Source of the DNA: a virus
Virus record (IMG/VR): IMGVR_UViG_3300027432_000002
Length of the DNA stretch: 64,000 bases
Strand: one strand, 5' to 3'
Position 1 is the first letter of the stretch. Each line of letters opens with the position of its first letter. The notes beneath the pieces were generated by a model that made no database searches, had not been told where the DNA came from, and saw nothing but the letters and a program-made list of their open reading frames with translations. Below are positions 1 through 64,000 of this stretch, piece after piece. The position numbers and the translations under genes are program-made.

Positions 1-207
1 CGACTTCGCTGGCCAAACCCCGAGCGGATCGCACCGGATACCGTTCTTTCTCAGTACCTTGCACGTGTGCATTGCGTTGACGCCGAGCGCACGATGGGAG
101 TGCGGTCCCATCTTCTGGACGTCACGATATACGATAACGACGTGAGCGAGTTTGCTGTCTGGATTATGGTAGTGCATGAATTGCGCGCTTACGCGTTCCC
201 CAATTGA
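1..207 (+). CDS. 3' end of a hypothetical protein entering from outside the window
   Basis: Open frame from base 1 (RLRWPNPERIAP...LRAYAFPN) to TGA at 205-207, convergent on the minus-strand arm across an AT-rich gap. Confidence 0.5.
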   Translation, partial: RLRWPNPERIAPDTVLSQYLARVHCVDAERTMGVRSHLLDVTIYDNDVSEFAVWIMVVHELRAYAFPN

Positions 208-269
208 CTAAAGAATATACTTCAATATACAGTATACACTATTTGGATGTTGAATGCAAGTGTTATTTA

Positions 270-743
270 CTATAGCCATTGCAACACTTTCCAAACGATG
301 TATGTCACGCCAGCAACCTTGATGGTCTTTCTTACGATTCGTCCGTAGTCGTGACTGTAAAGAAGGTCTTCTGCGAGATGCTTGAACGCTTTCTTGCCCT
401 CTTCACGTTTCCGCTCGAGTACGATTCGGTTTTGGAACTTGTCCCACGTGACTGGCGTTCCTGCTTTCCAAGCGTCGCCAAGCTCGTCGACTACTTGCCA
501 AGGAATGACAATCTTATAGAGCCCTTGTGGGTCATAGAAGTTCTCCGTGATAGGGTCGAATATCCACGGATCCCCTCCTCCCTGAAGGTAATAGAGAAAC
601 GGCGCTACGCCAGAGATAGGCGGCTCGAGGTAATCAAGATCGTACCATCCTGCCGCCTGCCCAGGGTTATTGCTCGTAAAGACGCCAGTATCAAACCACG
701 CAGACGATCCTGCTACGGAGTAATCGAAAATTCCAGCACTCAT
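270..743 (-). CDS. hypothetical protein
   Basis: ATG (MSAGIFDYS) at 743 overlaps the stop of the upstream methyltransferase (ATGA coupling). Confidence 0.65.
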   Translation of the reverse strand: MSAGIFDYSVAGSSAWFDTGVFTSNNPGQAAGWYDLDYLEPPISGVAPFLYYLQGGGDPWIFDPITENFYDPQGLYKIVIPWQVVDELGDAWKAGTPVTWDKFQNRIVLERKREEGKKAFKHLAEDLLYSHDYGRIVRKTIKVAGVTYIVWKVLQWL

Positions 744-1405
744 ACGAGTGGTAGTTTTTTGAGCTTGGCGATCCAATCGACCGTGACATTCCACAACGTT
801 TTGAAACGTTCTCCTTGTACTTCTGCGCTCCGGAGGCCCTCCTCCTGCGGCATGGAATGCCCGACGTCGACTCCGAAGTTGCAGGAGATACGGTAATGGT
901 CAAGACCGTTCTGTTTTCGCCAATCACGGGCGAAGTAGAGAAACGTCTCTTGCATGAAGAAGCGCCGATGGGTAGGGTCCCAGAATGCCCTATTGCTCCG
1001 GCCAGAAGGTACAACGACTGTCATCCAAGCGTCAGGCTTCATGATGCGCCAGCATTCATCCATGAAGGCGAAGAGCATATCGGCGCCGATGTAGCGTGTA
1101 CCGGACCTATTCTCGAGACCACGCCCAGCGGTGACTGGATCCACCAGATCTCGATTCTCGACCTCGCGCGCAGGTACATGCTCGAGAAGGTGTGATGCGT
1201 GAATCTCGTCTACGGAATTGTCCTTGAACGGCCAAGGAAACTTGAATAGATCGACTTTATATTTCGCCTTATCACCGTAGAGGTCCACGCCTTCGAATCC
1301 CTCTTTTGGATTCTGGCCGCACCCGAGGTCGAGCCGGATAGGTTGCGTTGAAACCGCTTCGACAAGCTTGAGAGGAGTCTTCTTCTTATTGAGTTTCTTG
1401 GACAT
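740..1405 (-). CDS. class I SAM-dependent methyltransferase
   Basis: LDLGCG motif I, VDL, PWPFKDNSVDEIHASHLLEHV, DECWRIMKP, DPTH. Confidence 0.9.
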   Translation of the reverse strand: MSKKLNKKKTPLKLVEAVSTQPIRLDLGCGQNPKEGFEGVDLYGDKAKYKVDLFKFPWPFKDNSVDEIHASHLLEHVPAREVENRDLVDPVTAGRGLENRSGTRYIGADMLFAFMDECWRIMKPDAWMTVVVPSGRSNRAFWDPTHRRFFMQETFLYFARDWRKQNGLDHYRISCNFGVDVGHSMPQEEGLRSAEVQGERFKTLWNVTVDWIAKLKKLPLV

Positions 1406-1430
1406 TGAGGTTCTCCGAATAGTGACTGAA

Positions 1431-1661
1431 TTACTTCTTGGGTGTGACGTCGTCTTCCTTGTTGACCGTGACCGTCACGATTGCATGTGCGTTACATCGA
1501 CCGCAGATAATCTCGCAATCGAGAATGTTGTGGTTGAACGGACTGACTGCGGGTAAATCCCACTTGTGCCCCTTGAGCGCGCACCACTTCTTCTTGGTGG
1601 CCTGTTCTTCTGCCAAGAGTGCCGCTTCTGCTCTGGCGAAATCTTCTTTGCTGAGACCCAT
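1431..1661 (-). CDS. small Cys/His-containing hypothetical protein
   Basis: Start MGLSKEDF with AAGGAG RBS; C-x4-H and C-x2-C motifs. Confidence 0.6.
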   Translation of the reverse strand: MGLSKEDFARAEAALLAEEQATKKKWCALKGHKWDLPAVSPFNHNILDCEIICGRCNAHAIVTVTVNKEDDVTPKK

Positions 1662-1671
1662 TGAATTCTCC

Positions 1672-3185: not shown

Positions 3186-4862
3186 TTATGTTCCTTGGAA
3201 TATGAAGGTCGGCTGTTGAGCGGCTGTAGCGCCTGTTCTGATGTACGAGGCTGTGTTAGAAAGTCCGAAGCTCGCTGGCAGGGCATTGGTGGTCGCTTGC
3301 GAGTAGCCGTTGACCATGAGATTGCTCATCGCGGCGACCTTACCGCTCGAGATGGCAGGCTGTTGAACGTTTCCGTAGATACTTAGTCCAATACCATTTT
3401 CCGTCGATACCCACCAGCCAAATAGGTACGGACCAGGAGTAAGCGCCCACGAGTTGAGGCTCATTTGCTGGTAGTTGATTCCCGTGTTCGACGAGAGAGC
3501 TGCGCCCGACGTCCAAGTAAGGTTGGTGCTACCGCTCGACACGAGCGTAATTTTCGTCCCTCCGCTCAGGGTGTAGAGAGCCGCACTGACCGATAGTCCG
3601 CCGGACGAGTTCGACGCCTGACTCGATACGGACGCGAGCCATAGGAGGTTCGTAACCGTGATGGCGTAGGGAACGATGATGGGTTGAAAAAAGAGCGTAC
3701 CTTGTCCCATGGTCTGCGCGGTAGCGAAGTAACCGTTTGACCAAGAAGAGATACCGCCGTTTTGCATGGTAACGGTCGAACCGTTGAGTCCAAAGCTGAA
3801 ACCGTTCGAGTTCGAGAATACGAGAGCTGAAAGGTTATTCGATGTGGTGCCAGCAGAAACGTTAATGTTGGTGAGCGATGTGGCGACCGATGCCGTGACG
3901 GTGGAAGCGTTGAGACCAAACGAGATGCCGTTACTATTCGAGAACGTGAACGCCGACGCGAGATTGGATGTTGTTCCGGCCGACAGGTTGATGCTCGCTT
4001 GGGTGCTAGCGACAGTGACCGAAGCTGTAACGGTAGAACCGTTGAGACCGAACGAGACGTTATTGCTATTCGAGAAGGTGATGGCTGAGAGATTGTTGGA
4101 TGTTGTTCCTGCGGAAACGTTGATATTCGTTAGCGACGTCGCAACCGACGCAGTCATGGTCGAGCCGTTGAGTCCAAATGAGACACCATTCGAATTACTG
4201 AATGTGATAGCTGAAAGATTATTGCTAGTAGTACCTCCCGAGAAATTGATACTTGCTTGGCCCGGATTGATCGACGCTGTAATGGTGGAACCGTTGAGAC
4301 CAAAGCTAACGCCGTTAGAGTTCGAGAACGTGAAGGCCGACGCGAGGTTTGATGTCGTTCCGGCCGATAGATTGATGCTCGCTTGGGTGCTGGCGACGGT
4401 GACTGAAGCGGTCACCACCGACGAGTTACTCATCCCGAACGTGACGTTGTTACTGTTCGAGAAAACGACCGTTCCACTTGTTGCGGTCTGCGTTCCGGCT
4501 TGGATGGCTCCAATCGCAAGGGCGTCTGCGTTGACACTTGCGGTAATGACCGAACCGTTTAATCCGAACGTAACGTTGTTGGAATTGGAGAAAGTGACGG
4601 CTGAGAGATTGTTTGAAGTAGTTCCTGCACTAATGTTGATGTTGGAAAGGAGAGTGCCTACCGTTCCTAATGGGAGCCACAACGTTTCGGCGGCTGTCTG
4701 TGATGCCGCAAGGTGAAGTTCCCCCGCAGAGTTTGAGAACCCAACCGTGACTGTACTTGCGGCGGAGTTACCCACCTCATACATCGGCCCTTGGTGATAA
4801 AGCGTATCGATACTGAGTTGGACAAGGTCTTGAAAGTTACCTGTTGTGACTGTCATAACCAA
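3186..4862 (-). CDS. fibre/spike-like protein with 7 Ser/Asn/Thr-rich beta repeats and a C-terminal head
   Basis: Seven copies of roughly SAGTTSNNLSAxTFSNSNxVSFGLNGSTxTAS. Confidence 0.7.
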   Translation of the reverse strand: MVMTVTTGNFQDLVQLSIDTLYHQGPMYEVGNSAASTVTVGFSNSAGELHLAASQTAAETLWLPLGTVGTLLSNINISAGTTSNNLSAVTFSNSNNVTFGLNGSVITASVNADALAIGAIQAGTQTATSGTVVFSNSNNVTFGMSNSSVVTASVTVASTQASINLSAGTTSNLASAFTFSNSNGVSFGLNGSTITASINPGQASINFSGGTTSNNLSAITFSNSNGVSFGLNGSTMTASVATSLTNINVSAGTTSNNLSAITFSNSNNVSFGLNGSTVTASVTVASTQASINLSAGTTSNLASAFTFSNSNGISFGLNASTVTASVATSLTNINVSAGTTSNNLSALVFSNSNGFSFGLNGSTVTMQNGGISSWSNGYFATAQTMGQGTLFFQPIIVPYAITVTNLLWLASVSSQASNSSGGLSVSAALYTLSGGTKITLVSSGSTNLTWTSGAALSSNTGINYQQMSLNSWALTPGPYLFGWWVSTENGIGLSIYGNVQQPAISSGKVAAMSNLMVNGYSQATTNALPASFGLSNTASYIRTGATAAQQPTFIFQGT

Positions 4863-4926
4863 TGCCCTCTCGCGGTTACACTTCTACTAAGTAAAGTATA
4901 CCACACTTTTTGCCATAATGCAAGCT

Positions 4927-6291
4927 CTAAGTGCCAATCAAGATGACTCCAGGCTGCCGTAATGCCGAGATTCCTGTACGCACATATCCCGTGTCCGTAG
5001 CGACAATGCTTGTTGGTAGTACCGCCACAGTCGATGTGGATAACCCATTGAGGAACGTATCTTCTTCGATTCCGTCGTAGGTGCCAACAATGTTCATTGC
5101 CGCTCGACCGAACATGTTGACGACAATAGCCCCATTCGCGGTCGATATCGCCCACCCAAAGAGGTAGTCCCCTGGAGTCATGCTGTAGTTTACGCTGAGC
5201 GTCCGATACCGTGTTCCGCTCGCGCCTCCGAATTGACTGGATATAGCGGTGTTACTACCACTCGTCCACGAGAAGACACGTGATGCGGAGCTGGCTAGAC
5301 TTGCGGTTTCTCCTGAGAGTGTGTAAACCCCGTGGCTAACGGTGACCGCTCCTGACGATAGAGACAATCCTTGAAAGTCTGCAATGATAGCAAGCTCGGT
5401 TGCTCGAACGTTGCATGCGAGCGATAGCTTTTGTAGGGACAGCGCCGCTTGGGAGACTGGGAATTGCGTGACGAAGTCTGCATCTTGCGAGAAGATGCTG
5501 ACTGTTCCCACACCGAGTATAGAGCCTGTTACTGTTCCAGCGTTGAGTCCAAACGATATTCCGTTGCTGTTAGCGAACGTGACAGCCGATAGATTGGCCG
5601 AAGTGGTTCCAGCTGAAAAGTTGATACTTCCTTGACTCGAAGCGAACGTTGCCGAAGCGGTGATAACTGAATCATTGAGACCGAACGAGACGTTGTTTGA
5701 ATTCGAAAACGTAACGGCCGACAGATTGTTGGATGTCGTTCCGGCCGATAGGTTGAACGCGTAGGAGGCAGTAATTGTTGAATTGTTGATACCGAACGAA
5801 ACGCCGTTGCTGTTCGAGAAGGTGAACGCCGTTCCTAACTCAACGTTTGGTCCAGCCGAAATGGCAATATCACCGACAACGACAATAGCTCCACTTGTGA
5901 CTAGGATTTTTCCCTTGTCATCGATGGTCTGCCAATCATGAAAGTCGTCATAGTGAATCGTATAACCGGGAGGAAGATTGAACGAATATTTCGTGCTGGC
6001 GAAGGTGCCATCAAAGACCTTGATGGTGACTTGCTCTGGCGCTCCACCTGCATTGAAAGCAGTAAAATCCTTGACGTTGCGAAAGATACCTACTGGAGTC
6101 GCCGGTGGACCGTCTGTAGCAACGGTCATCCCAATCGTATCGATGAGAAGACTATGTCCGTCAGGAATGAACGTGATTGGGAGATTTGGACTTGCTGGCG
6201 GAATCTGATCGACCCAACTTACGTTGACTTCGATAGGCTGCACCCCGCCAGTGAAAACCTGAAGCTCAAAGCTTGGTTTCAGGATGATCAT
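4927..6291 (-). CDS. fibre/spike-like protein, paralog of 3186..4862 with 3 repeats
   Basis: Same repeat x3; similar C-terminus (TPGxYLFGW...YxRTG...QP). Confidence 0.7.
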   Translation of the reverse strand: MIILKPSFELQVFTGGVQPIEVNVSWVDQIPPASPNLPITFIPDGHSLLIDTIGMTVATDGPPATPVGIFRNVKDFTAFNAGGAPEQVTIKVFDGTFASTKYSFNLPPGYTIHYDDFHDWQTIDDKGKILVTSGAIVVVGDIAISAGPNVELGTAFTFSNSNGVSFGINNSTITASYAFNLSAGTTSNNLSAVTFSNSNNVSFGLNDSVITASATFASSQGSINFSAGTTSANLSAVTFANSNGISFGLNAGTVTGSILGVGTVSIFSQDADFVTQFPVSQAALSLQKLSLACNVRATELAIIADFQGLSLSSGAVTVSHGVYTLSGETASLASSASRVFSWTSGSNTAISSQFGGASGTRYRTLSVNYSMTPGDYLFGWAISTANGAIVVNMFGRAAMNIVGTYDGIEEDTFLNGLSTSTVAVLPTSIVATDTGYVRTGISALRQPGVILIGT

Positions 6292-6312
6292 TGGCGCTGT
6301 CTAAATCTATAC

Positions 6313-6699
6313 TTATTTCGTGTCTTCGAGTGAATTCGCTATCCGCTCAATGAGGACTTTGAGTGAATGTTTTGGATCGGTATTCCAATCTACAGGTTTC
6401 TGTATTACTTCGAGTATTCCTTGGAGAGGATCCTTCCAGTTGGCTCTCATCTCCGATAGGGAATGACCTGTTACCATGAACTTCGCACATCCAGTTGGAA
6501 CTTCGCGCGCTACGTGAGAACCGTTGAGTGGAGTGCCAAGCTCCCAATCGAGCAATACCAAGTGGAATCGATGATAGTGGACGAGATTGATTGCTTCGAC
6601 GGCTGTTTCCGCTTCGATTACTTCGTGACCCTCAGCTTCTATAAGATTTCTCAACATGGTTCGTTGGTCACTATCGTCGTCTAAAATTAGAATGCGCAT
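6313..6699 (-). CDS. stand-alone response regulator receiver (CheY-like) domain
   Basis: MRILILDDD, LVLLDWEL (phospho-acceptor Asp), NG, MVTG, QKP. Confidence 0.9.
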   Translation of the reverse strand: MRILILDDDSDQRTMLRNLIEAEGHEVIEAETAVEAINLVHYHRFHLVLLDWELGTPLNGSHVAREVPTGCAKFMVTGHSLSEMRANWKDPLQGILEVIQKPVDWNTDPKHSLKVLIERIANSLEDTK

Positions 6700-6715
6700 A
6701 GATGTCCTTTATTAT

Positions 6716-8545
6716 CTAACGTCCTAACCAGACGTCGACTCCAACATCTTTCGTATGCTCTGTTTGACGTACCAGTTTCAAACCCGCCCACACACATAAG
6801 GCTCGAAGGTCGTCCTTGTGTTTGGCTCGGTGGTATTCATACGTGCATAGCTTTACAGATTTCAAATGTGCGTAGTTTTGAAGTATCTCCAGCTCTACAC
6901 CTTCTGCGTCGATCTTGAGTACGTCCGTTGGCGGCAAACTGTTTGGATGAATCGCTTCTACTTCGATACGACGTCCGTCTGTAGGAGGTTCGAACGTTCT
7001 TGATCCTCCCCATGTTGGATCGATCCACAGTATGGTTGGCGACTTCTCTACCGTTACCGCTTGACGATGAACCGTTGCGAACGGAGCGTTACGTTCACAA
7101 TACGCAGCCGCTTCTCCGTTTGGTTCAAAACATTCGATGGTAACTTCTGGCCATTTGAACTTTGCCCATACCGCAAACGCTCCAACGTTTGCTCCGATAT
7201 CAAGTACCGTACGGATACCTTCAAGAGGTACCTTAGGGTCGTACTCCAAACCTTCGAAGATTCCCTTTGCCATGTGATGGCTGGAGAAATGTGGTTCGCC
7301 TGGAGGTGGAGGTAATTCGAGAATTGTTCCTAGCGGAGTTGTGAGTGCTACTCCATGCGGAGACTCTTGGTACCAACCCTTCCCCCATCGATCCATAATT
7401 CGTTGAAAGTATCGTTCATATTTTGGAGCGATAACTTCGAGACTCCATTTGCCTCGTGCTCTGTCTCGTATCCACAGTCTCTCCTCTAGGCTAAGTTCGG
7501 CTGCCGCTTTGGCTCTCTCCACGAATTCTCTATGAGAAGTACACCTCCACTCGTCTTCTACCGTTTCAGAGAACGCGCCTTGATCTGTGGTGATGGCAGG
7601 AGTGCCCGAAAGTTGCGCTTCGACAGCCGTACCCCCGAATGGTTCTCTGAACTTGGTCGGATTGAGAACCGCAACCGCGTTAGCCATGAGCGCAGCACGT
7701 TCTTTCACGTTGGCATGTCCAAAGAAGATGACGTTTTTATCCGTCGTTACGTATTCTCCTTGACCTGCGATAACGAGACATGCGTTGAGTGATTTACATA
7801 CCTCCACTGCGATATCAAGTCCTTTTTCGTTTCGGACTCGACCAATGAATAGATAATATGGTTCGTTATGGATTGCCTGCATCACTTGCGCTACGCGAAG
7901 TGGGATTGGTGGAATGACAGGAAATTCGTCCATGTCAAAGAAGTTGTGTATAGTAGTCTCGTCGTTGTCTTCCCACTTTTTGTCTTTCGAACCAGCAAGC
8001 CAGCTTCGGTGGAAGTCGCTTTCGAAGATACGGTACCTTGACTGAGTTCCGTAGTATCCAATTCCCCATTCTACGATTGCAGCGGATTGGAGCATTCCGT
8101 CGTAACTACCTGGAAAGAACGCGCCGATAGGTCCTACTTGACAGGCTCCGCTGAGAGTAAGGATGAAGTCTCCCGGTTTCACGCGCGGTACGAGAGCGAC
8201 CAAAAGACGAGCGTTGTACTCACGCCAGTATTTGACAGTTGGGTCCCACTCGATATGATAGAGTTTTTGCTTATCGTGTGGACCGAAGTAGGCCGCACGT
8301 TCTGTCTCTGAAAAAATCTGCACATGTTCGCAATCCGCCGTTGACCCTTCATTGGAGTAGTCGATGCACGTATGTTCTCGACGTGAGAACATCTTAATGG
8401 CCTTGTAGACCTTGGACGTATACGCGCAATGACAATACTCCTCACTCGTTGTCGTATGAGGCATACCAAGGAAATGAAATCTGAATTTTGCAGTTTGAGA
8501 CATAGGTTTTGAGTATACCAGATATGCCTGTAGTTCGTCAATCAA
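6716..8545 (-). CDS. fusion of a GT-B (GT4-like) glycosyltransferase and an FkbM-like methyltransferase
   Basis: [33 protein letters not shown]; then [27 protein letters not shown]. Confidence 0.88.
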
Positions 8546-10302
8546 GGAACCGTGAGAACGATGAGACGTGCTCCGTCAGCTGGAACGTTGGCAGGCGAGG
8601 CACTACCGCTCGTCAACTGAATCGTTGCAGAAATCGTATGCGATCCAGCTGTAGCGATAAGAAGTGCACATCGATTATAAATGTATTCGTGGGACAGTTC
8701 GTCCACTGCGAGAATATCGATTGCCACTCCATCTACAGGAGTGCCGTCTTGTAGAATGGTAAACGTGACTATCGCGTCGGAACTAACGTTTGCGAGATAA
8801 GGAGTTGAGAACCAAACGATAGCTTGGTCGGTCGGAGGAAATACAATAGCCAGTGCTGTAAGTTGATGCGATGCCCCATCGGACCAATCAATAAGACTTG
8901 GATTCTGCGCCTGATGAACGATCGCTCCAGCACCGCTCGCGCCCGTTGCGCCTACCCCTCCCGTACTGCCGGCCGATCCGGTAGCTCCTGTTGCTCCCGC
9001 TGCACCATTTGATCCGTTCGTTCCGGCGGATCCAGTTGCCCCTTTGGCGCCTGTTGCTCCTGTTGCGCCAACTCCTCCCGTGCTGCCGCCCGCTCCCGTT
9101 GCTCCCGTGGCTCCCGTCACTCCAGCGCCGGTAGCGCCTACGCCTCCCGTTGTGCCCGCAGAGCCTGTCGCTCCGGTAGCACCGTTCGTGCCGTTACTCC
9201 CTGTAGCGCCCTTAACTCCCGTTGCGCCGGTAGCGCCAACTGCTCCAGCACCACCTACCGCTCCCGTTGCGCCAGTTGCGCCAGCTCCAGTAGCACCTGT
9301 ACTACCTGCTGCACCAGCAGCACCAGCAGTGCCAGTTGCTCCGGTAGAACCGTTGGTGCCATTGGTTCCTGTCGCTCCCTTGACTCCCGTTGCGCCGATA
9401 GCTCCAGCTACGCCAGCGGCACCAGTAGCCCCCGCTGCACCTGTAGCTCCTACTGTTCCCGCTGCGCCCGTAGCTCCTGTCGCGCCAGCGCCGGTAGCTC
9501 CAGTTGTGCCTGTAGCTCCTGCCGGTCCGGTTGCTCCACCACCAGGGCCTGTTGGTCCCATGGTTCCCGTAGCACCCGTGGCTCCAGCGCCTGTTGCTCC
9601 CGTTGCTCCGGGAGAGCCTGTTGCGCCAGCAGTACCTGTTGCGCCTGTCACGCCAGCGCCAGTAGCGCCCGTTGCTCCACTGCTGCCTGTAGCGCCAGCG
9701 GTTCCCGTAGCGCCCGTGACCCCAGCTCCGGTAGCTCCTCCGCTACCTGTAGCGCCCGCAGTTCCCGTAGCGCCTGGTGCTCCCGTAGCGCCCGTGACCC
9801 CAGCGCCGGTAGCCCCAGCGGTTCCCGTTGCCCCTGCTGTGCCCGTTGCGCCCGTCGCGCCTGGAGGTCCACTAGGACCACCGGACGGTCCTGTCGCTCC
9901 TGTAGCGCCACCACCACCGCCAATAGGCCAAGGGTCTGGAGTGATACCTTGTCCTGCGAAATAACCTTCCGATGCAATAATGAGCGCAATGATTGAATTA
10001 CTGAGCTGAGTGAACGTGGACGGAGTCAGCGTCTCCGTATTCATCTCCGTGTAGCGATTTTCCCAAACCGCTTTACACGCTTTTTCGATGATGAAAACTT
10101 GGAGTGTGTCTGGAGGGTCTGTATCTGGATTCAGCTCCCATGCTTGATCGAATGAAATAGAGAAAGCTCCAGCAATCATTGCGTAAGGAGCATAGTCACT
10201 AGGGACAGCGTCTTCGATCCACCGTCCGCTCGCAGCGAATCCAGAGATGATTCCGGAATATGCTGCGGTGAAGACTGTTATGTCGTTGGGTACGTAAGAC
10301 AT
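8542..10302 (-). CDS. collagen-like fibre protein (YVPN anchor family)
   Basis: Conserved N-terminal domain of about 125 aa, long Gly-X-Thr/Ala tract, beta-rich C-terminal head. Confidence 0.85.
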
Positions 10303-10355
10303 GGGCGGTGGTGTCCTTTGTTAGTTGACGAGATTGTTATACCAGTCGCGCTCGG

Positions 10356-12293
10356 TTAGGCTGTTCCGATCACCGCGGATTCTGAGGCGACGTAATGCGC
10401 TTGGAACCCGAATCCACCCGCGCCAATCGTCGCTACGAAGTTGGCCCACGTGGTGACACGGGTCATGGGGCCCCCCGCTTCCGTGTAGGCGCCCACGGCG
10501 TCGTCCCACGCCCGAGCGTGATTATCTGTCGTTCCGTTTGGAATGATAAAGGCGAAGTCTCCACTCGACCCAGTTACGCTCGGAACGAGTCCAGCAGAAG
10601 TGGGGACTGGGATAACTGCACCAGCACCGACAAGAATGCCGTAAGCATGATTCCCATTACCCCAAACCAAGCCACCGAGAAGAAATGTACAACCTTCGTA
10701 AGCGAGAATTCCGCCCGCAAAGGATGCCGGATTGTCGTGAACCTGAATTCCGGTAAAATGTTCTGATCCATGTAGAACCGCTATCGATTGTATATAAGTT
10801 CCACCAACGAGCAGTCCGCTAACGATTCCTGTTATATAGGTATCATTAGCAAAGTTGATGACGCCGACAAGTTGGTCTGTGTTGGCGTTAGGTATCATCA
10901 GTCCCGCATTCATGTCGATAACGCTGTTGCCCTGTACGCCGTTACACCATACGCAATCGTTGAAGTTGCCTCCGACAAAGACCGCATCCAAGAATGCGCA
11001 TCGGTTGTAGTTCACCGCGTCTGTAGAAAAGGATCCGGCGACCCTCGGTCCGACCGATCCGATAACAAATGAGCAGTCGTTGAACGTCAGTGTGCCGCCG
11101 CTTGAGTGTGGTGGCGTTACGGACGCAAGCTTCAACGTTCCGGGTCTTGTGAGTCGGTATCCGTCACCGATGGTCAGGGCTCCGAATGTCACTCCGTCCG
11201 GGAGTATCGGCCGAGTCACCGATGCCGTAGGGCTGCCGACACCGCGAGCGATCCACGCGCCTGCTGTGGTTGCCATATCGACTACCCGAACCGGAATCGT
11301 TGCTGCGCCACTCGCTTGCGCCACGGCTAGTACGTATGGCGTGAAGTTTGCGATATCGCTCGTGTGGACTGTCTGCCGCTGACCTCCGCCTGGAGCTAGC
11401 GGATTGATGGCGATCGTCCCAGCGTCCAACGTTCCACCGATATGAACGACGACGGGCGTCATGTTCACGACGATGTTGAAGTCCTCTTGATCGAGATAGG
11501 AAAAGTCTAGTCCGATGAGTCCAAAGCTTTCGCTCAGGTAGGTGACGGTAAGGTCGGCCAGAAGAGGACCGAGCGCGCTTCGCGCCTGAATCCGGAGATT
11601 TTCTTCATCTGTCGTAAGGATCGGTCCGCTTCCAGGTGGAACGTTGTTAGCGGTCTGTCCAGTGTTGGCGTTGTTAGCGAATCCGGTTACGTTCTGCGGA
11701 TCCACGAACAGTGCAATGGGTTGGCTTGTCAGCGCGAACGCGGGACCCGTCGCGCCTTGAGCGCCTGCTGGTCCGGTAGCGCCTACAGGACCTGTCGCTC
11801 CCGCTGCTCCAGACGCCCCTGTTGCGCCTACACCGGTTGCCCCATGAGCGCCTGATGGTCCGGTGGCACCAGCAGGACCAGTTGCTCCCGTAGCTCCACC
11901 ACCACCACTTCCAGAAGGCCAAGGATTCGGAGTGATACCTTGACCTGTGAAGTACCCCTCTCCTGCAATAATGAGCGCAATGATTGAATTACATAGTTGG
12001 GTGAACGTGGACGGAGTAAGCGTCTCTGTCGTCATCTCTGTAAAGCGGTTTTCCCATACTGCTTTGCACGCTTTTTCGATAATGAGGACTTCGAGCGTAT
12101 CTGGAGGCGTTGTATCTGGACTAACCTCCCACGCTTCGTCGAACGAAATGGCGAAGGCGCCAGAGATCATCGCGTAAGGGGCATAGTCGCCAGGTACCGC
12201 ATCTTCGATCCACCGTCCACTTGCAGCGAATCCAGAGATGATTCCGGAATACGCCGCAGTGAAAACTGTTATGTCGTTGGGTACGTAAGACAT
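10356..12293 (-). CDS. fibre protein (YVPN anchor family) with short collagen tract and large beta-rich C-terminal region
   Basis: Same anchor; short GAT tract; LFVDP...ANNANTG motif followed by beta-helix-like composition. Confidence 0.8.
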   Translation of the reverse strand: MSYVPNDITVFTAAYSGIISGFAASGRWIEDAVPGDYAPYAMISGAFAISFDEAWEVSPDTTPPDTLEVLIIEKACKAVWENRFTEMTTETLTPSTFTQLCNSIIALIIAGEGYFTGQGITPNPWPSGSGGGGATGATGPAGATGPSGAHGATGVGATGASGAAGATGPVGATGPAGAQGATGPAFALTSQPIALFVDPQNVTGFANNANTGQTANNVPPGSGPILTTDEENLRIQARSALGPLLADLTVTYLSESFGLIGLDFSYLDQEDFNIVVNMTPVVVHIGGTLDAGTIAINPLAPGGGQRQTVHTSDIANFTPYVLAVAQASGAATIPVRVVDMATTAGAWIARGVGSPTASVTRPILPDGVTFGALTIGDGYRLTRPGTLKLASVTPPHSSGGTLTFNDCSFVIGSVGPRVAGSFSTDAVNYNRCAFLDAVFVGGNFNDCVWCNGVQGNSVIDMNAGLMIPNANTDQLVGVINFANDTYITGIVSGLLVGGTYIQSIAVLHGSEHFTGIQVHDNPASFAGGILAYEGCTFLLGGLVWGNGNHAYGILVGAGAVIPVPTSAGLVPSVTGSSGDFAFIIPNGTTDNHARAWDDAVGAYTEAGGPMTRVTTWANFVATIGAGGFGFQAHYVASESAVIGTA

Positions 12294-12312
12294 GGTATTT
12301 AGTACCTTTCAA

Positions 12313-13989
12313 CTACCACGAAATTGCGCATACACCTGCGGTTTGGGTGTTTGGAACGTTTACGGTGTGCAAAACGCTAGAGTCATTAGTTGCTCGGATT
12401 GAAAACGTATGCGTTCCTACCAGACCAGCGGCCACCCAGGTGATGGTACCGTTGGCATATCCTGTTATGGGGGCTGTAATTGCAAGAATGGTTGGGCCTA
12501 TTTGCGTCTCCCCTCCTGTTCCGGCGTCTTGAATGAGTTCGAATAAAATCGCATCGCCAGGGACAGAAGCTTGAGCAGTCATAACGCCAGTTACTAAGAC
12601 TCTGCCCACTGGACCGGAAGGAATGCCTCCCACTCCCTCGTACGTGCATGACCATGCCACACTGCCAGGACCAGTTCCGGGAGGGATGGACCCAGAATTG
12701 AATCCTTCGAGAGTTGAAAAGATCCCACCAGTCCCCGTAGCTCCCGTTGCGCCGATTCCTCCCGTACTGCCGGCCGATCCGGTTGCGCCCGTTGCGCCTA
12801 CTCCTCCCGTACTGCCGGCCGATCCGGTTGCTCCCGTAGCACCATGCACACCAGTAGCTCCCGTTGCGCCCACTCCTCCACTGCTTCCACCAGCTCCCGT
12901 TGCGCCCGTTGCGCCCGATGCACCGGCGCCTGTAGCGCCTGCCGATCCGCCAGCACCCGTTGCCCCTGTCGCTCCAGCTGTCCCATTGGTTCCAGCCGAT
13001 CCGGTAGCTCCTTTCGCGCCAGTCGCTCCTGCTGCTCCAGCAGCACCCGTAGCTCCCGTAGCCCCTGTCGCTCCAGCTGTCCCATTGGTTCCAGCCGATC
13101 CGGTAGCTCCTTTCGCGCCAGTCGCTCCCGCTGCTCCAGCAGCACCCGCTGCTCCAGCAGCACCCGTAGCTCCCGTAGCCCCAGAAGCTCCAGCCACTCC
13201 CGTAGCGCCAGCGCCGGTAGCTCCCGTAGAACCTAGAGGACCAGTTGCACCTTGAGGGCCTGTCGGACCAGACGCTCCACCACCAGGCCCCGTTGCTCCA
13301 ATGGTTCCCGTAGCGCCCGTAGCACCAGCGCCCGTTGCGCCAGTTGCGCCTAGAGAGCCTGTGGCACCAGCAGTACCTGTTGCGCCAGTAACCCCTGCGC
13401 CAGTGGCGCCCGTTGCGCCTAGCGATCCTGTGGCACCCGGTGCTCCTGTAGCTCCCGTCCCTCCTGTACCTGTAGCCCCACTGCTACCTGTAGCGCCTGC
13501 GGTTCCTGTAGCGCCCGTCGCGCCTGGAGGTCCGCTAGGCCCTCCTGACGGTCCGGTTGCTCCCGTAGCTCCACTTCCACTACCAGATGGCCACAATTCT
13601 GGAGTGATTCCTTGACCTGAAAAGTATTCATCCGAAGCAAGAACGATAGCAATGATTGAATTACATAGGGTAGTAAACGTGGATGGTAGAAGCGTCTCCG
13701 AATTCATCTCCGTGTAGCGGTTTTCCCAAACCGCTTTACAAGTCATCTGAATGACCAACACTTGAAGTGTGTTTGGAGGTACTGTATCAGGATTGATTTC
13801 CCACGCTTGATCAAAACTTTGCGCAAATGCGCCAGCGACCATGGCATACGCAGAGTAATCAGCGCTATTGCTATCCTGAACCCATCGTCCACTTGCAGAA
13901 AGTCCCGCGATGATTCCAGAATACGACGCTGTATACACAGTTATGTCGTTGGGTACGTAAGGCATGGTTTCGCTATCCTTTACTGACAC
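12313..13989 (-). CDS. collagen-like fibre protein (YVPN anchor family)
   Basis: Same anchor (start may be MPYVPN), long GXT tract, C-terminal head. Confidence 0.85.
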
Positions 13990-14372
13990 GGAACGTTGCA
14001 GGTCTGTATACTTCCACCATCAAAAAGACAGGCCATCCAAGCAGGCTGTTCCGAGTCCGAATGTTCGTCCGTGACCGCTTGGAGACCGTCCGGTGTCGCC
14101 GACAGACAGCCTCCAATCACAAGTTCTGTGTAGACCGTTTGCGCGGTCGCTGGAGGAGGACTCGTTGGAGCGCAAGATAGGATAGATAGAAGAAAGCCGA
14201 CTGCTTTGACCGTTGACATACAGAGAAACTTTTTAGAGCCGCAAGTGACACATTCAGTCATGAGTCGCTCTTTCCCATCCGAGCTAATCGCTCGAATGAG
14301 TCGAACCTTCTGCCAACCGAACTTATGCACAAGCCAGTGCCAAAGTCCGACCCTCCAAAGTCGAGCGCTCAT
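13980..14372 (-). CDS. hypothetical Cys-rich, possibly lipoprotein-like protein
   Basis: TGATG coupling to the peptidase; internal hydrophobic FLLSILSC segment (alternative start 14219). Confidence 0.5.
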
Positions 14373-16725: not shown

Positions 16726-16765
16726 TGAGAGTCTCCTTAGGCACTGTGTACGGCTAATTCATGAA

Positions 16766-20964: not shown

Positions 20965-21012
20965 ACTTGGAGGTCACTAAATTCACGCACTATCTAGCCG
21001 ATCTGCCGCGAT

Positions 21013-22493: not shown

Positions 22494-22507
22494 AACGTTA
22501 GTTCTCC

Positions 22508-41461: not shown

Positions 41462-41462
41462 A

Positions 41463-48098: not shown

Positions 48099-48980
48099 TT
48101 ATGAATCGTTTTCTCCAAACCGATTGATAGCTCCCTCGTCCTCCTCCTCTTCTTCGTCTCCGTCATGGTCTTGCTTCGGTGACAAGATGAGCTTGCCAGG
48201 ATACTCCGGATGGTTGGCTGGTGTCATTAAAAGAGTGACGCCGCGCGGAGACTCCCCGAAGCGGTTCTTGGTCGAGCAGAAAAACCTCTCCCCATCCTGA
48301 TCGTCCTTCTCCAAAAAGTACGTCGCGTCCACCGCATGCTGAAGCTTCATGATCCCAGCATGGTCGCCGTCCTTGTTGATCTGGTTGACAATGAGAGACG
48401 GCGCTTTCAACTCCACGGTGTAGCTCTTCAAGCGTTCGCAGACAAGTAGTCCGAGGTTTGGGTCGTCGCCCGTCAGCTTCGTCAAGCTGTCCAGGATCAT
48501 GAGCCCTGGCTGGTAGCGGAGGATGAGCGCACCCAAGTCGCTACGGAGGCCCCCCATCGCCTTGACGACCCGGATGCGATCCATGTTCTTGATCTTGATG
48601 CGCCGAGCCGTCTCCTTGATTTCTTCGGGACCTTGCTCGTTCGCGATAAACATCGCTTCACGGTTGGTGATGTCGATGATACTGTCGGCGAGCTGCAAGA
48701 AAAGGGTGGTCTTGCCAGCTCCGGGAGGACCCGCCACAAGACTAACGCTTGTGCGCGCTAGGCCACCGCCAAAGACAGGATCGAGCATGCCTGTGTGGTA
48801 ACGTTCGATAACGGATAGACGGGCGTCCGAGAGAAGAACAGTCTCTTCGTCGTCGGGTGAGGAGTTCTTATCAGGGAGGTGCCAATTCTTGCACTTTGGA
48901 CAACGCATCTTGTCCGAGGGAACAAGAGACTGGCAAAGTTTGCAAGTGTAGGTGCCTACAGAGTGGGCATTGGCGCTCAT
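48099..48980 (-). CDS. RadA/Sms-like RecA-family ATPase lacking the C-terminal Lon-like domain
   Basis: N-terminal C4 Zn finger, LDPVFGGG, GPPGAGKTT, MILDS, LQHAVDA, KNRFG. Confidence 0.85.
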   Translation of the reverse strand: MSANAHSVGTYTCKLCQSLVPSDKMRCPKCKNWHLPDKNSSPDDEETVLLSDARLSVIERYHTGMLDPVFGGGLARTSVSLVAGPPGAGKTTLFLQLADSIIDITNREAMFIANEQGPEEIKETARRIKIKNMDRIRVVKAMGGLRSDLGALILRYQPGLMILDSLTKLTGDDPNLGLLVCERLKSYTVELKAPSLIVNQINKDGDHAGIMKLQHAVDATYFLEKDDQDGERFFCSTKNRFGESPRGVTLLMTPANHPEYPGKLILSPKQDHDGDEEEEEDEGAINRFGENDS

Positions 48981-56114: not shown

Positions 56115-58355
56115 GTGCGCCTCTCGTATCATTTCCCGGTAGGTGATCCTTGCAAAGTTTGTAGTCGCCCGGGAGCGCTTCATCGAATCACCCATCCATC
56201 CGAAGGCAATCCCTGCCAGCGTTGCGGATACGGAGAGAACTACCACACAAGTACTTCGAAGAGCTGGAGACGCGAGTCAAGCGAAAAACCAGAAGTAGAG
56301 TACCTCGGAATCGACGGGGAAGGACAAGGACGAGAAGACCATCGGTACATCTTTCTCGCTGCAAGCAATGTGGACGGCACGAAACGCTGGTCTATCGATG
56401 GACAGATTGAATCGGAAACCGACAGACGAAGAGTACGTCTAACGACCGAAGACGCTCTCGACTTCATTTTATCCATTCCAAAGACCCGCTACACCAAACT
56501 CTTCGCATACGCCTTCCAATACGATCTCACCAAGATTCTGACTGACGTCGACAATCGGTCTTTATATAGACTCTTTCGCCCAGAATTGAGAAAGCGCCGT
56601 CCCGACGATACGCGCAAGGGCTTGGTACCCATCTATTGGCACGGCTACATTATCAACCTTCAAGCGAGCAAATTCACGGTCAAGAAAAACGGCCGGCGCG
56701 CGGTCATCTGGGATATCTTCAAGTTCTTTCAAGGACGATTCGTAGCAGCCATCGAAGACTGGAAAGTGGGTACTCCCGCACTCTGGGAGCGGATGGCGCG
56801 CATGAAAGAGCAGCGTGCCGATTTTGACAAACTAGACTGGCAAAGTGTGGAGGAATACTGTTTCGAAGAGTGCGCCTGTATGGCAAGTTTGGCTCAAAAA
56901 CTCACCGAAGCGCACACGGCAGCTGGCTTGAAACTCAAGAATTATTACGGTGCAGGGTCGAGCGCCGAAGCGATGCTCACGGTTATGGGGGTCAAGAACA
57001 AGCTTCGCGCTTGTCCGGACAAGCTCAAAGATATCGTTCAGAAAGCTTTCTTTGGTGGAAGGTTCGAAAATTCAGTAATTGGCACCATCTCTGGAACGCT
57101 CTACGGATACGACATCTCGAGCGCGTATCCGTACGAGCTATGCTTTTTGCCATGCCTCGAACATGGCAGCTGGCAGTGGACAGAGAAGCGAGAAGACTTG
57201 GACGGTCCATACGTCGTTCAAGGTTTAGTCAAGTACAGATTGAGAAGAATTCGCTCTACCGTAGGCAGCGCCTGGGGACCATTTCCGTTTCGAGAGAAAG
57301 ACGGGAGTATCTGTTTCCCCATCTCGTCGGGAGGAGGATGGATCTACCGAGACGAGTATCTGGTAGGCGAACGTCTCTGGCCCAATACGGAGTTCTTGGG
57401 AGCGTGGGTCTATAAGACTTCGTGCGACTGCAAACCGTTCAAGGAGATCCCCAAGTATTACGCCGAACGAGTACGGATTGGTAAAGAGGGACCAGGAATT
57501 GTCATCAAGCTCGGATGCAATAGCTGCTACGGAAAGCTCGCCCAATCGGTGGGGGCGGCACGGTTTCAATCGTGGCTTTGGGCGGGCATGATTACGAGCG
57601 GCACGCGCGCGAAGCTCTTGGAGATGGTGGGCCTAGTCAAAGACCGAGCGTCAATTCTCATGATGGCAACTGACGGCATCGTTTCGAGAGAGCGAATCGA
57701 GACGCCGCGTCCGAAAGACACAGGAACGTTTGAAGTAATCAAGATGAAGGACGGTAAACCGGATGGTGGACCCGTCCCACTCGGCGGATGGGAAGAGAAG
57801 GTAAACACCAAAGGGATGTTCTTCGCCCGCCCTGGGATCTACTTTCCACTGTCCCCTACCGCCAAAGAAGCGAGCAGTGTGCGCGGACGCGGTATCGGCC
57901 GAAAGGCCATTCTCGAGAATTGGCAGGATATCGTCAGCTCCTACGGCAAACTGAAAGCCGAAGGCAAGGTCGAAACAGGCACGGTCAAGATAGCCGAGGT
58001 ATCGCGATTCTGCGGCGTCAAGTCATCACTTTCACCGTCTACGAAAAACGGACAGCGAATCTATACGCGAAGCCATGGCAAGGTTGACCCAAAGCGCCCA
58101 GACCACCAGACGCCGTCCTACGGCCAGTGGATCGTCCGACCGATCGATCTCTCCTTCAACCCCCATCCCAAGCGCGCTTACAGCGGGCAGATTGTCTTAG
58201 GACACGAAGCGGAAAGATTGACAGTTCGCAAGATTAGCCAGACAATCGAGAGCGCGGTCTATCAGCGGGCGCTTGATACCGAGGGAGCCGAGATGAAAGA
58301 AGCGATGGAGGAAGTGGTGGAGCAACCGGATGCCGACTTCTATGAGGTCATGTGA
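56115..58355 (+). CDS. family B DNA polymerase with protein-primed-type motif pattern
   Basis: ExoI GIDGEG, ExoII FQYDL, FFGGRFE, YDISSAYP, KLGCNSCYGK, ATDGI, LGGWE; N-terminal Cys/His repeats. Confidence 0.9.
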   Translation: MRLSYHFPVGDPCKVCSRPGALHRITHPSEGNPCQRCGYGENYHTSTSKSWRRESSEKPEVEYLGIDGEGQGREDHRYIFLAASNVDGTKRWSIDGQIESETDRRRVRLTTEDALDFILSIPKTRYTKLFAYAFQYDLTKILTDVDNRSLYRLFRPELRKRRPDDTRKGLVPIYWHGYIINLQASKFTVKKNGRRAVIWDIFKFFQGRFVAAIEDWKVGTPALWERMARMKEQRADFDKLDWQSVEEYCFEECACMASLAQKLTEAHTAAGLKLKNYYGAGSSAEAMLTVMGVKNKLRACPDKLKDIVQKAFFGGRFENSVIGTISGTLYGYDISSAYPYELCFLPCLEHGSWQWTEKREDLDGPYVVQGLVKYRLRRIRSTVGSAWGPFPFREKDGSICFPISSGGGWIYRDEYLVGERLWPNTEFLGAWVYKTSCDCKPFKEIPKYYAERVRIGKEGPGIVIKLGCNSCYGKLAQSVGAARFQSWLWAGMITSGTRAKLLEMVGLVKDRASILMMATDGIVSRERIETPRPKDTGTFEVIKMKDGKPDGGPVPLGGWEEKVNTKGMFFARPGIYFPLSPTAKEASSVRGRGIGRKAILENWQDIVSSYGKLKAEGKVETGTVKIAEVSRFCGVKSSLSPSTKNGQRIYTRSHGKVDPKRPDHQTPSYGQWIVRPIDLSFNPHPKRAYSGQIVLGHEAERLTVRKISQTIESAVYQRALDTEGAEMKEAMEEVVEQPDADFYEVM

Positions 58356-61591: not shown

Positions 61592-61667
61592 GATCAGGTC
61601 ATGGCCAAGAGAATCTCATCGCGACAGTGCACGGTATCGGATACGTGATTGCGAAAGGTAAAAAGTT

Positions 61668-62036
61668 ATGACCGCTCGAGTCGCCACGCGGAACCTCTAC
61701 GTATCGCTCGTCACGCTTCTGACGGCACTCGTCATGCTTTGTGTGCAAGTTGTACGCCTGGTTACCAAGCTCGCTCTCGCTGGGATAGACGCCCTGCAAC
61801 GGCTGGAACGCCGGCAGGCAAAACTGGTGCAGCAAGGTACACCAGCGGTGCAAGCGCCAGCCGCGCCAGTAGCACCAGAAACGCCGGACGCTGCTGCGAG
61901 ACTGACCTCCGCGCTCATGGGTTTGGGATTCCAGAAGCCTGCGGTACGACAGTACGTGTCGTCGGTAGAGACCCGTATCGGGAAGGAACCGATCGAGACG
62001 CTCATCAAGGACGGCCTTCGGACACTGGCGTCGTGA
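61668..62036 (+). CDS. hydrophobic N-terminus plus RuvA C-terminal-domain-like protein
   Basis: LTSALMGLGF...V...V.......IETLIKDGLRTL. Confidence 0.6.
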   Translation: MTARVATRNLYVSLVTLLTALVMLCVQVVRLVTKLALAGIDALQRLERRQAKLVQQGTPAVQAPAAPVAPETPDAAARLTSALMGLGFQKPAVRQYVSSVETRIGKEPIETLIKDGLRTLAS

Positions 62037-62074
62037 GGGCATCGTGAGCAACGTGAAGCTATACCTCACCGCAC

Positions 62075-62640
62075 ATGAAACCTCAGGAGAAAACCGTGAG
62101 CAATCTACACGATCGCATCAAGGCAGCGCTAGAAAATGACGCACCGAACAGCCCGAACATATGGATAAAACACGAACGACTGGCAAACACCGCCCGCGAA
62201 CTCTTCCCGCTCGTGCTCGCAGCGCTTACCGAACGGGATGACGCAGTAGCCTCACTCGAGAACGCTCGCGCGGTGAACCGAAGTCATACCGCCGAAATCG
62301 ATCGACTCATCAAAGAGCGTGATCGATACCGAAACGCGGTAATGAGACTCAATAATGAACTGGAAGGAGGGTGGACCCCGTCATGAGCGCCAAGACCGAC
62401 AAAGCCGAAATCGTCCAGCGTATCAACGACGCGGTGAAGTCCGCCGGACTGCCGGAGCTTCCGTTTGACCTACTCCACAAGGCGGACGCCATCACGCTCA
62501 ACCTGTTCTATGACAGGTGGCTCACGGTGGCGCTGGTATACGTACAAGTATACGTACAAGGAAGGACTAGAGAGATAGAAAGACAGCTACACTGTATATC
62601 GAAACAGTCGGAGACGACCTACGTACGTCCTCCCACCTAA
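62075..62640 (+). other. two hypothetical genes (62075-62386, paralog of 44039-44308; 62383-62640)
   Basis: RIKAAL..DAPN.PNIW.KHERLA..AREL.PLVL shared with 44039-44308. Confidence 0.6.
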
Positions 62641-62715
62641 TTCACGAACTATTTGTTCGAAAGACCTTTACCTTCGCCACGCTCGGCCGTACAAGAAGAG
62701 AGAAGGACGGCGAAC

Positions 62716-64000
62716 ATGATTCGAATCACTTCCGAAGGCCAGCACATCATCCTCAAGCCTACCACCTTCTTGGGCGGCGACAAATTCCAGTCCTACCGGA
62801 CGGCGACCGCGGGAGCACGATTCGACCCGGCGCGCAAAGCTCAGGTCACGGTCCTCACCAAGTTGCCTGCTATCTTGAAACGTCTCTCAGCCGCGGGCTT
62901 TCAGCTCGACATCTCGCCGGACGTTCGCGCCTCCGTGGGCGCGCTCACTGCCCAAGTAAGTCTCGACGTAAAGGATACGCGCGCGCGAGCGGACGCGAAG
63001 GACGTGGAGCTTGCGGCACGCGGGCGCGCGCTCTACCCATTCCAGAAGACGGGCATGGCGTGGCTCTCGTCCCGACATGGAGCTTTGCTCGCCGATCAAC
63101 AGGGGCTTGGGAAAACAATTCAAACGCTCATGGCTTTACCGGACCTCGCACCCGTTTTGGTCGTCTGCCCCGCAGTCGCCAAGGGCGTTTGGAAGCGCGA
63201 AGCCTCTGCTTGGAGGCCGGAGTACAAAGTGACAGTTCTCTCGGGTCGAGGTTCCCTCCGATGGCCCCTTGCAGGGGAGCTGGTTATTGTCAACTACGAT
63301 ATTTTGCAGGTAAGAGACGAAACCGACGAGACGGAATTTTTTGCAGCGTGCCCCAAAGGACTCGTTCTCGTAGGAGACGAAGTTCACGCCACGAAGAACG
63401 CCAAGGCGGCACGCACCGTCGCTTGGAGGCGCCTCGCGGTCGCTACGCAGAAGGCTCAGGGACGCGTCTGGGGCTTGACCGGTACGCCGCTACTCAATCG
63501 CGGCCAAGAGCTTTGGGCGGTCCTCCAGTCGCTTGGTCTCGTCTCGGAAGCCTTCCGCAATTGGGATCACTTCGTCTCGCTCATGGGGGGCTATAAGGGA
63601 AGGTACGGCTACGTCTGGACGAGGACGCCGCCGGACCCGGGGGCAGTGGGCGCGGCGATCAAACCCGTCATGCTGCGACGTCTGCGGACCGAAGTGTTGC
63701 CGGACCTTCCCACGAAGACCTACAACACGGTCACGGTGGACCTCTCGAAGAAGACCACGAAGATCTGCGACGAAGCCTGGGGACTCGTTCAGCATGCTCG
63801 GGCGGATCGATCGGGTCCGGACGAGGGACTTTCGATCGGTCAAGTGTCCGAGGCGCGCGCGGCGCTGGCGCTTGCGAAGATCGATACACTGCTCTCGCTC
63901 GTCGAAGAATTCGAAGAGGCGGAAGAACCGATCGTGGTGTTCAGCGCGCACCGCGCTCCCATCGATGAGCTGGCCACGCGCGAAGGCTGGAAGGCCATCA
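62716..64000 (+). CDS. SNF2/SWI2-family helicase, truncated by the window end
   Basis: Hand translation: LYPFQKTG, LLADQQGLGKTIQ, VGDEVH, GLTGTPLLN, MLRRLRTEVLPDLPTK. Confidence 0.92.
   Translation, partial: MIRITSEGQHIILKPTTFLGGDKFQSYRTATAGARFDPARKAQVTVLTKLPAILKRLSAAGFQLDISPDVRASVGALTAQVSLDVKDTRARADAKDVELAARGRALYPFQKTGMAWLSSRHGALLADQQGLGKTIQTLMALPDLAPVLVVCPAVAKGVWKREASAWRPEYKVTVLSGRGSLRWPLAGELVIVNYDILQVRDETDETEFFAACPKGLVLVGDEVHATKNAKAARTVAWRRLAVATQKAQGRVWGLTGTPLLNRGQELWAVLQSLGLVSEAFRNWDHFVSLMGGYKGRYGYVWTRTPPDPGAVGAAIKPVMLRRLRTEVLPDLPTKTYNTVTVDLSKKTTKICDEAWGLVQHARADRSGPDEGLSIGQVSEARAALALAKIDTLLSLVEEFEEAEEPIVVFSAHRAPIDELATREGWKAI

Follow-up and report, generated by a model that had tools for sequence, protein, structure and literature searches.

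The actinobacterial Tectiviridae (Toil, WheeHeim and the Microbacterium phages) carry linear genomes of 15-18 kb with inverted terminal repeats (ITRs) of about 100-120 bp, two divergent arms, a double jelly-roll capsid protein and an A32/FtsK-type ATPase. The Portogloboviridae (SPV1) have an archaeal host and a circular genome of about 20 kb without a family B DNA polymerase of the protein-primed type (pPolB), and build on one single-jelly-roll capsid protein. SPV1 has no FtsK-type ATPase, and prokaryotic double-jelly-roll viruses stay under 20 kb, according to PMC8812541. The Halopanivirales among the Singelaviria (HHIV-2, HCIV-1, SH1, P23-77) have single jelly-roll proteins and an internal membrane but depend on a pair of capsid proteins and on an FtsK-HerA ATPase; the sphaerolipoviruses have linear ITR genomes of 28-31 kb (about 30 kb in PMC12643093) and lack a canonical polymerase (PMC12643093). 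Here we consider a 64,000-nucleotide stretch (the window) of the IMG/VR virus record IMGVR_UViG_3300027432_000002, which is tectivirus-like in replication and layout and SPV1/Singelaviria-like in capsid fold, and fails a defining feature of each group. Read from the genes alone, it is best explained, at a probability of roughly 0.5, as a large tailless virus with protein-primed replication, a membrane-lined single-jelly-roll shell and a RadA-like packaging motor.

The window is laid out in two divergent arms, on the minus strand to about 50,760 and on the plus strand from about 51,350. Its 89 open reading frames (ORFs) were compared with Pfam and PHROGs (best five rows per protein), which returned a PF03175 polymerase, SNF2, a RadA/Sms-like ATPase, peptidoglycan-binding plus SLT domains and collagen fibres; among these ORFs there was no match to large terminase, portal, HK97 capsid, tail tube or sheath, tape measure or FtsK, nor any PHROGs match for the capsid, protease and membrane core genes. 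What labels of tailed phages do appear rest on generic domains. A 71-residue helix-turn-helix (HTH) protein in the replication arm (53551-53766, plus strand) matches PF10668 "terminase small" at 23.9 bits (cut-off 22) over its HTH part only, 62075-62386 (plus strand) has a weak TerS match (E 0.027), collagen repeats match "tail fiber" PHROGs, and the SLT domain matches phrog_196 "baseplate hub."

The longest contig with a letter-for-letter copy of the ORF at 37459-38181 measures 77,674 bp, and the window is probably 64 of about 77.7 kb, leaving about 13.7 kb beyond it. Both window ends are matched without differences by contigs from two soil-metagenome runs, possibly the source of this DNA, one of which extends 2,128 bases before position 1. 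A relative of 45,030 bp, G001:C100, was read whole: its ends form an inverted repeat (6-119 versus 44917-45030; 116 columns, 88% identity), and in common with the window it has the polymerase, RadA, the jelly roll, the Cys protein and a number of further core genes. Its 71 six-frame ORFs of at least 105 residues (one in part only) gave no match to terminase, HK97, tail tube or FtsK/HerA; the sole "portal" row comes from a 154-residue NUDIX protein that matches the profile's NUDIX portion, and two "tail protein" rows are fibre pieces of about 55-60 residues. The absence of terminase, portal, HK97, tail tube and tape measure noted in the original prediction therefore extends to both ORF sets. 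That prediction also named head genes elsewhere on the contig as decisive; none occurs in the ITR-bounded relative, with the contig's remaining 13.7 kb unread. Lacking the terminase, portal, HK97 capsid and tail of Caudoviricetes in 89 window and 71 relative ORFs, the virus is very probably tailless, a conclusion well supported through the ITR-bounded relative. Terminal repeats, another proposed check, were found as inverted ends of about 115 bp in that relative, while the window's own ends lie outside it.

The polymerase points to a tectivirus-type replicon. Its best matches among isolated phages are P19, Toil, WheeHeim and Microbacterium and Streptomyces tectiviruses at 25-29% identity (27% for P19, Toil and WheeHeim), the rest of the 20 records being ABV2, Hardyhisp2 and His2. 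In a 21-row quick tree the window polymerase and 12 relatives group together (SH-aLRT 97), and this group is united with Toil, SCoupsA and WheeHeim (SH-aLRT 99) apart from T4 gp43, in keeping with the earlier assignment to the protein-primed rather than the RNA-primed type; the unpublished genome G003 (locus L078) is the window's sister. Spacing between motifs A and B (132 residues; Toil 130, phi29 134) fits a TPR1 insert, and that between motifs B and C is 54 residues (WheeHeim 55, Toil 59, T4 61, phi29 73, PRD1 88), so TPR2 appears short, like that of its tectivirus kin. Of the two insertions singled out for checking, then, TPR1 is matched by an insert of its length and the TPR2 region is short. 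Neither the candidate single-stranded DNA-binding protein (SSB) nor the candidate terminal protein (TP) had a sequence match to Toil gp09/gp08, and the relatives' candidate-TP profile missed the latter. The genome is likely linear, with inverted ends, and copied by its protein-primed polymerase.

A jelly-roll capsid candidate, overlooked in the original prediction, lies at 37459-38181. Its predicted fold is one jelly roll standing by itself instead of a double barrel, which departs from the Varidnaviria frame first proposed; no double jelly-roll match was found in the ORF scans of the window or G001:C100, though an ORF such as 28166-29032 might conceivably encode a diverged one. Structure prediction, suggested for all structural ORFs, gave a helix and beta-sandwich for the C-terminal 155 residues of the candidate (AF2, 106 sequences; pLDDT 87) and only pLDDT 33 for a single-sequence fold of 28166-29032. 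The best viral row in VIA is SPV1 6oj0_T (Z 7.2, rmsd 3.0, 116 aligned), followed by HHIV-2 6h82_b (Z 7.0, rmsd 5.1, 116 aligned; model residues 11-147, N-terminal helix included), the STIV turret (Z 6.5), HCIV-1 (6.2) and P23-77 VP17 (5.7); a BFVD search placed SPV1 VP4 at rank 27 (TM 0.49). When PDB sequences were searched with profiles built from alignments A1, A2, A3, A5 and A6, no meaningful match appeared, SPV1 included.

The family of this protein is large, with 529 clusters of relatives at 50% identity (199 of them at E <= 1e-30) and 194 proteins in another search; members are mostly of 200-300 residues, with one stand-alone barrel of about 130, and none matched 50,697 phage records or 72,556 plasmid records (PLSDB). 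Gene neighbourhoods were compared across 79 loci, comprising 75 metagenome loci (from the best 80 of 170 confirmed) and four contigs of metagenome-assembled genomes (MAGs). Compared with G001, no other core gene is as well conserved as the jelly-roll gene (63% versus 22-45% for others), which is single in 71/79 loci, with one copy each in the window and G001. C-ending F/Y/N/I codons reach 0.72 in the pooled jelly-roll gene against 0.42-0.51, and it ranks first in 16 of the 23 rankable loci (2.5 expected) among 25 chosen as long and non-duplicate, one of the 23 being from G003; Toil's major capsid protein (MCP) gene likewise leads among eight Toil genes tested. This bias favours a highly expressed MCP over a penton, and the protein is quite likely the MCP. 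Eight of the 79 loci (L015, L016, L017, L019, L020, L030, L036 and L046) have two or three jelly-roll paralogues, which echo the duplication proposed for Singelaviria.

Around the capsid gene the order is conserved: polymerase facing one way and, facing the other, ATPase, two hydrophobic proteins, jelly roll and Cys protein. The RadA-like gene is present in 28/32 loci with at least 5 kb upstream of the capsid gene, shares its orientation in 35/35 and lies within 3.2 kb in 30/35, typically followed by two hydrophobic paralogues; three loci without it are the window's close kin, where it likely lies beyond the fetched flank. In Toil the polymerase runs leftward and ATPase, membrane protein and capsid rightward; the RadA-like gene of the present loci occupies the slot of that packaging ATPase, and Microbacterium tectiviruses have their ATPase in the same slot of the same layout (PMC11768872). 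Because of this slot, the RadA-like protein is the likely motor. It matches TIGR00416 over positions 29-263 of 454 and pneumococcal RadA 5lkm best in the PDB (E 1.5e-31). KNRxG is kept in 33/33 copies (KNRFG in 12, other KNRxG in 21), with the C4 Zn finger and RecA domain that cellular RadA/Sms also has; only 26-112 residues follow KNR, where two cellular RadAs (one of them from G003) have 202 and 213, and the viral form lacks the C-terminal Lon-like domain.

A six-frame Walker A scan of G001:C100 gave three matches (RadA, a stretch near the polymerase N-terminus and a 24-residue frame), leaving the RadA-like gene as its only P-loop ORF; Toil's ATPase, gp12, carries the motif, to which its similarity to the RadA-like protein is limited. 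The original prediction held the packaging ATPase to be outside the window, diverged or absent: none is visible in the window, and FtsK/HerA is absent from the ITR-bounded relative rather than merely out of view. RadA forms hexameric rings (PMC5512693), and RecA-type ATPases package RNA in cystoviruses (PMC3814363). We infer that the packaging motor may have been displaced by a truncated RadA; that the ring packages DNA stands at even odds. Cystovirus P4 offers the precedent for a RecA-type hexameric motor, differing in its single-stranded RNA cargo where the present one would be double-stranded DNA moved by a protein derived from bacterial RadA/Sms. A RadA-based scan of IMG/VR yielded 26 distant loci, all of them devoid of the capsid gene and the rest of the structural core.

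The transglutaminase-like gene of the original prediction has a weak Pfam match, yet D125-C126-K127 and H162 are invariant in 33 aligned homologues, the family has 1,057 members, and the gene follows the capsid gene in 40/40 loci with at least 3 kb downstream. The motif [FHY]G-x-[DE] occurs 17 times against 4.3 expected in 17 core structural ORFs, once against 2.3 in fibres and six times against 4.4 in non-structural ORFs. FG is concentrated in the N-terminal part of capsid-family proteins (677 in 19,458 residues versus 40 in 24,661 residues of the core; counted in 179 of 271 proteins with the capsid anchor motif). We lean slightly toward the Cys protein cleaving FG-x-D/E-rich precursors during maturation; alternatively, the FG repeats may be sticky and aid assembly. 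The two small hydrophobic proteins belong to one family (96 ORFs in 55 loci) and are likely membrane proteins. Hydrophobic helices (KD19 >= 1.6) occur in 10/24 structural-arm genes tested (Toil control 10/26), which agrees with the many transmembrane (TM) proteins first described, and an internal membrane is probable.

In the reading preferred here, the polymerase would start at terminal proteins on the inverted repeats, the shell would assemble on a vesicle carrying viral membrane proteins, the ATPase ring would load the genome and the Cys protease would trim precursors. Glycosylated collagen-like spikes would bind the host, and the TM-anchored transglycosylase would open the peptidoglycan. 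Several observations weigh against this scheme. Inverted ends are known from a single relative, where the repeat is imperfect; the quick tree has long branches, with T4 as its sole RNA-primed row; and L078 has no RadA between polymerase and capsid gene, a real break in order. Foldseek returns jelly rolls with no PDB match at E <= 0.001, the top two VIA rows are the cellular enzyme PHM (Z 7.5 and 7.4), and because every VIA score is below Z 8 the predicted fold is clear and homology to viral capsids is not. The HHIV-2 chain 6h82_b is probably the penton, going by PMC6414509. Codon bias of the window's own jelly-roll gene (0.68) is mid-rank, the Cys protein is not constant in its third catalytic residue, and the FG motif was selected only after sequence inspection. 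Cellular RadA moves on single-stranded DNA and has its ring stabilised by the Lon-like domain (PMC5512693), which the viral form lacks. The loci are related and partly duplicates, and their counts are not independent.

The strongest competitor keeps the tailless jelly-roll virus and makes the RadA-like protein a replication or recombination helicase; basic proteins would condense the genome, and no motor would take part in enclosing it, as in SPV1 or FLiP. Cellular RadA is, after all, a DnaB-type single-stranded DNA helicase (PMC5512693), SPV1 and FLiP have no packaging ATPases (PMC8812541), and the short B-to-C spacing (54 versus 73 residues in phi29) may call for help with strand displacement; the eleven small basic ORFs of the window and the synteny break in L078 would fit as well. 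Yet the gene is transcribed with the structural genes and away from the polymerase in 35/35 loci, Toil (59) and WheeHeim (55) have equally short spacings and Toil has no annotated helicase, and the basic MPHKR family is confined to seven close loci. The known motor-less precedents, moreover, have genomes of about 20 kb or less. We regard this explanation as unlikely, though a serious one.

Distinctly less probable is a penton or minor role for the jelly-roll protein, in which case another core gene, such as 28166-29032, would encode the major capsid or envelope protein, or the particle would be enveloped and non-icosahedral. The 6h82_b match does cover the N-terminal helix, a trait of sphaerolipovirus pentons (PMC6414509), and the beta-rich 28166-29032 product might be two stacked barrels; however, its conservation is much lower (beyond the close clade, 23-31% identity), and it has large insertions and lipoprotein-like leaders in some members, shows ordinary codon bias (0.50 versus 0.72 for the jelly-roll gene) and bears no profile similarity to the jelly-roll protein. 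A linear plasmid-like element without a virion, its jelly roll a carbohydrate-binding or surface protein, is very unlikely: cellular PHM heads the fold rows, G001:C100 has ParB-like and RadC genes and the family was not recovered from IMG/VR, but a long co-oriented arm holds fibres, peptidoglycan-binding and lytic enzymes, membrane proteins and a protease, and there is neither a PLSDB match nor more than four contigs among GTDB genomes, in four unrelated MAGs. A tailed phage with head and tail genes in the remaining 13.7 kb is scarcely credible, for although the window is 64 of about 77.7 kb, bears a TerS-like HTH match and "tail fiber" labels, and pPolB is used by phi29-like tailed phages too, those genes are all missing from the ITR-bounded 45-kb relative with the same core, its "portal" row being NUDIX.

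Returning to the preferred virus with a RadA-like motor, the lineage shares with actinobacterial tectiviruses its closest polymerase, divergent arms, a probably linear genome with ITRs (seen in G001:C100), the order of ATPase, membrane protein and capsid, and a structural arm that includes lytic enzymes and membrane proteins. What sets it apart is a size of 45-80 kb, the single jelly roll, a RadA-like ATPase, the Cys protease and its collagen fibres. The likeness to SPV1 lies in one single-jelly-roll putative capsid protein and the absent FtsK-type ATPase; an ITR-bounded relative and peptidoglycan-binding and SLT genes stand against SPV1's circular genome and archaeal host. Halopanivirales resemble it in the predicted single jelly roll (Z 5.7-7.0, below 8), the probable internal membrane and, for sphaerolipoviruses, the likely linear genome with ITRs, and differ in that the present loci mostly have one such gene, a pPolB and no FtsK (G001:C100). 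No tested family fits, in agreement with the possibly undescribed large lineage of the original prediction, and such a group is not described in the literature searched (largely open-access; supplementary tables aside). Tentatively, and at somewhat less than even odds, we propose a widespread high-rank lineage of large non-tailed bacterial viruses, overlooked in current virus catalogues, with a tectivirus-type replicon, a one-protein single-jelly-roll capsid, a transglutaminase-fold protease and a RadA/SF4-type ring packaging 45-80 kb of double-stranded DNA.

At 45-80 kb the lineage exceeds the known sizes of such viruses, and each part has an analogue while the combination is unmatched in that literature. 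A virus of bacteria that has a sole capsid gene, of the single-jelly-roll kind, is relevant to the SPV1-like ancestor that has been suggested for Singelaviria, and the tectivirus-type replicon would here be found under another capsid. If RadA does package DNA, a motor was recruited a third time, giving a third class of double-stranded DNA motor next to terminase and FtsK/A32. Profiles of the capsid and protease families can serve at once as markers for this group, which was not recovered from IMG/VR: neither the capsid gene or its alignment nor the polymerase brought up anything there, in scans using short exact patterns that distant relatives may escape.

Metagenome contigs with relatives reach 73,685 and 81,199 bp. 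The four contigs among GTDB genomes stand alone in their MAGs and are probably mis-binned; G001:C100 sits in an archaeal MAG despite its peptidoglycan-binding and lytic genes, and also carries NUDIX, exonuclease and subtilase genes besides ParB-like and RadC. Among 401, 301 and 201 genomes sampled from three phyla, strong matches occurred in the seed genomes only; in the same samples six Myxococcota genomes had weak partial matches (E 6e-5 to 7e-4). A bacterial host is implied by the peptidoglycan-binding and SLT genes, and the style of the lipoproteins might hint at a myxobacterium. The unpublished G003 enters the analysis in the L078 order break, its place in the tree, one codon locus and one of the two cellular RadA lengths.

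Table 1. Features of the window; positions count from its first nucleotide
Feature	Position	Strand	Basis or remarks
Fibre/spike-like proteins	3186..18332	-	Collagen repeats, shared N-terminal domain; repeat families D7, D9, D14, D16
Glycosyltransferase, response regulator, three lipoprotein-like ORFs	3186..18332	-	Pfam/PHROGs and hydrophobicity
Intein-split peptidase-like protein	14372-16504	-	phrog_19005; LAGLIDADG intein at about residues 94-444
Likely entry/membrane module	19513..26095	-	25196, 24513, 23444-24040, 22508, peptidoglycan-binding 21420, TM-tailed 19513
Eleven scattered small basic ORFs	22272..41911	-	Start [MV][PA]H[KR]R; 56-102 residues, 15-33% K+R
Second lysozyme-like ORF	23444-24040	-	Judged by eye
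Peptidoglycan-binding + SLT, C-terminal TM	25196-26095	-	C-terminal hydrophobic helix, KD 2.49
31576 and 26356 core genes	within 26356..32247	-	Helical, N-terminal hydrophobic
27560 core gene	within 26356..32247	-	Zn ribbon
28166 core gene	28166-29032	-	Beta-rich, with GI[DE]G at the C-terminus; candidate penton or second capsid protein
29420 core gene	within 26356..32247	-	Conserved
Further fibre-like proteins	32958..36062	-	Collagen, BclA_C
Transglutaminase-fold Cys protein, likely maturation protease	36805..37386	-	PF01841 Transglut_core, E 0.032 (weak)
Candidate MCP	37459..38181	-	FG-rich low-complexity N-terminus, helix, single jelly roll
FG/HG-rich proteins of low complexity (two)	39616-40626, 38282-39532	-	Confined to the close clade
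Two paralogous small hydrophobic proteins	42089-42589, 40710-41147	-	Located between the genes for ATPase and capsid; KD19 1.59, 1.63
RadA/Sms-like ATPase, likely packaging motor	48099..48980	-	Zn finger + RecA fold, KNRxG, no Lon domain
Candidate SSB	51349-51966	+	Position and composition; 8 homologues
Candidate TP	52644-53240	+	Position and composition
Protein-primed-type family B DNA polymerase	56115..58355	+	PF03175; TPR1-length insert, short TPR2 region
SNF2-type helicase	62653..64000	+	Pfam; accessory; cut by window end

The long minus-strand arm that the original prediction called structural is real but runs past its 42 kb to the divide near 50,760, where the plus-strand SSB candidate with its homologues begins the other arm. 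In its left 8.5 kb the fibres stand, but the same stretch (1-8545, minus strand) also holds a glycosyltransferase and methyltransferase cluster, an HNH nuclease and a stand-alone response regulator adjoining the fibres; the cluster likely serves spike glycosylation. The TM-anchored transglycosylase was confirmed in domain content and C-terminal helix. SNF2 and RadA are both present as first described, RadA as a core gene and SNF2 as an accessory one, because SNF2 is absent from the ITR-bounded relative G001:C100 (ORF scan and comparison with the window).

Downstream of the capsid gene, the 29420 and 26356 genes recur in 24/24 loci with at least 8 kb of downstream sequence. The C-terminal GI[DE]G of the 28166-29032 family is near-invariant, and some members add a lipoprotein-like leader and inserted beta domains. 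Five fibre proteins (8542-18332 and 34002-35276, minus strand) share an N-terminal domain of about 125 residues, also found on non-collagen fibres of G001:C100, which is likely a common anchor with swappable tips. The protein at 14372-16504, which by its motif may be a peptidase, has its LAGLIDADG intein apparently at the putative catalytic Cys. The small basic ORFs, which otherwise look unrelated, possibly encode DNA-condensing proteins, and their common start may represent a sorting signal or mark a cassette for gene insertion; some also have conserved DNA around the start (repeat family D19). A 107-bp inverted duplicate of 82% identity (44190-44296 and 62111-62217) lies inside paralogous small ORFs on opposite arms.

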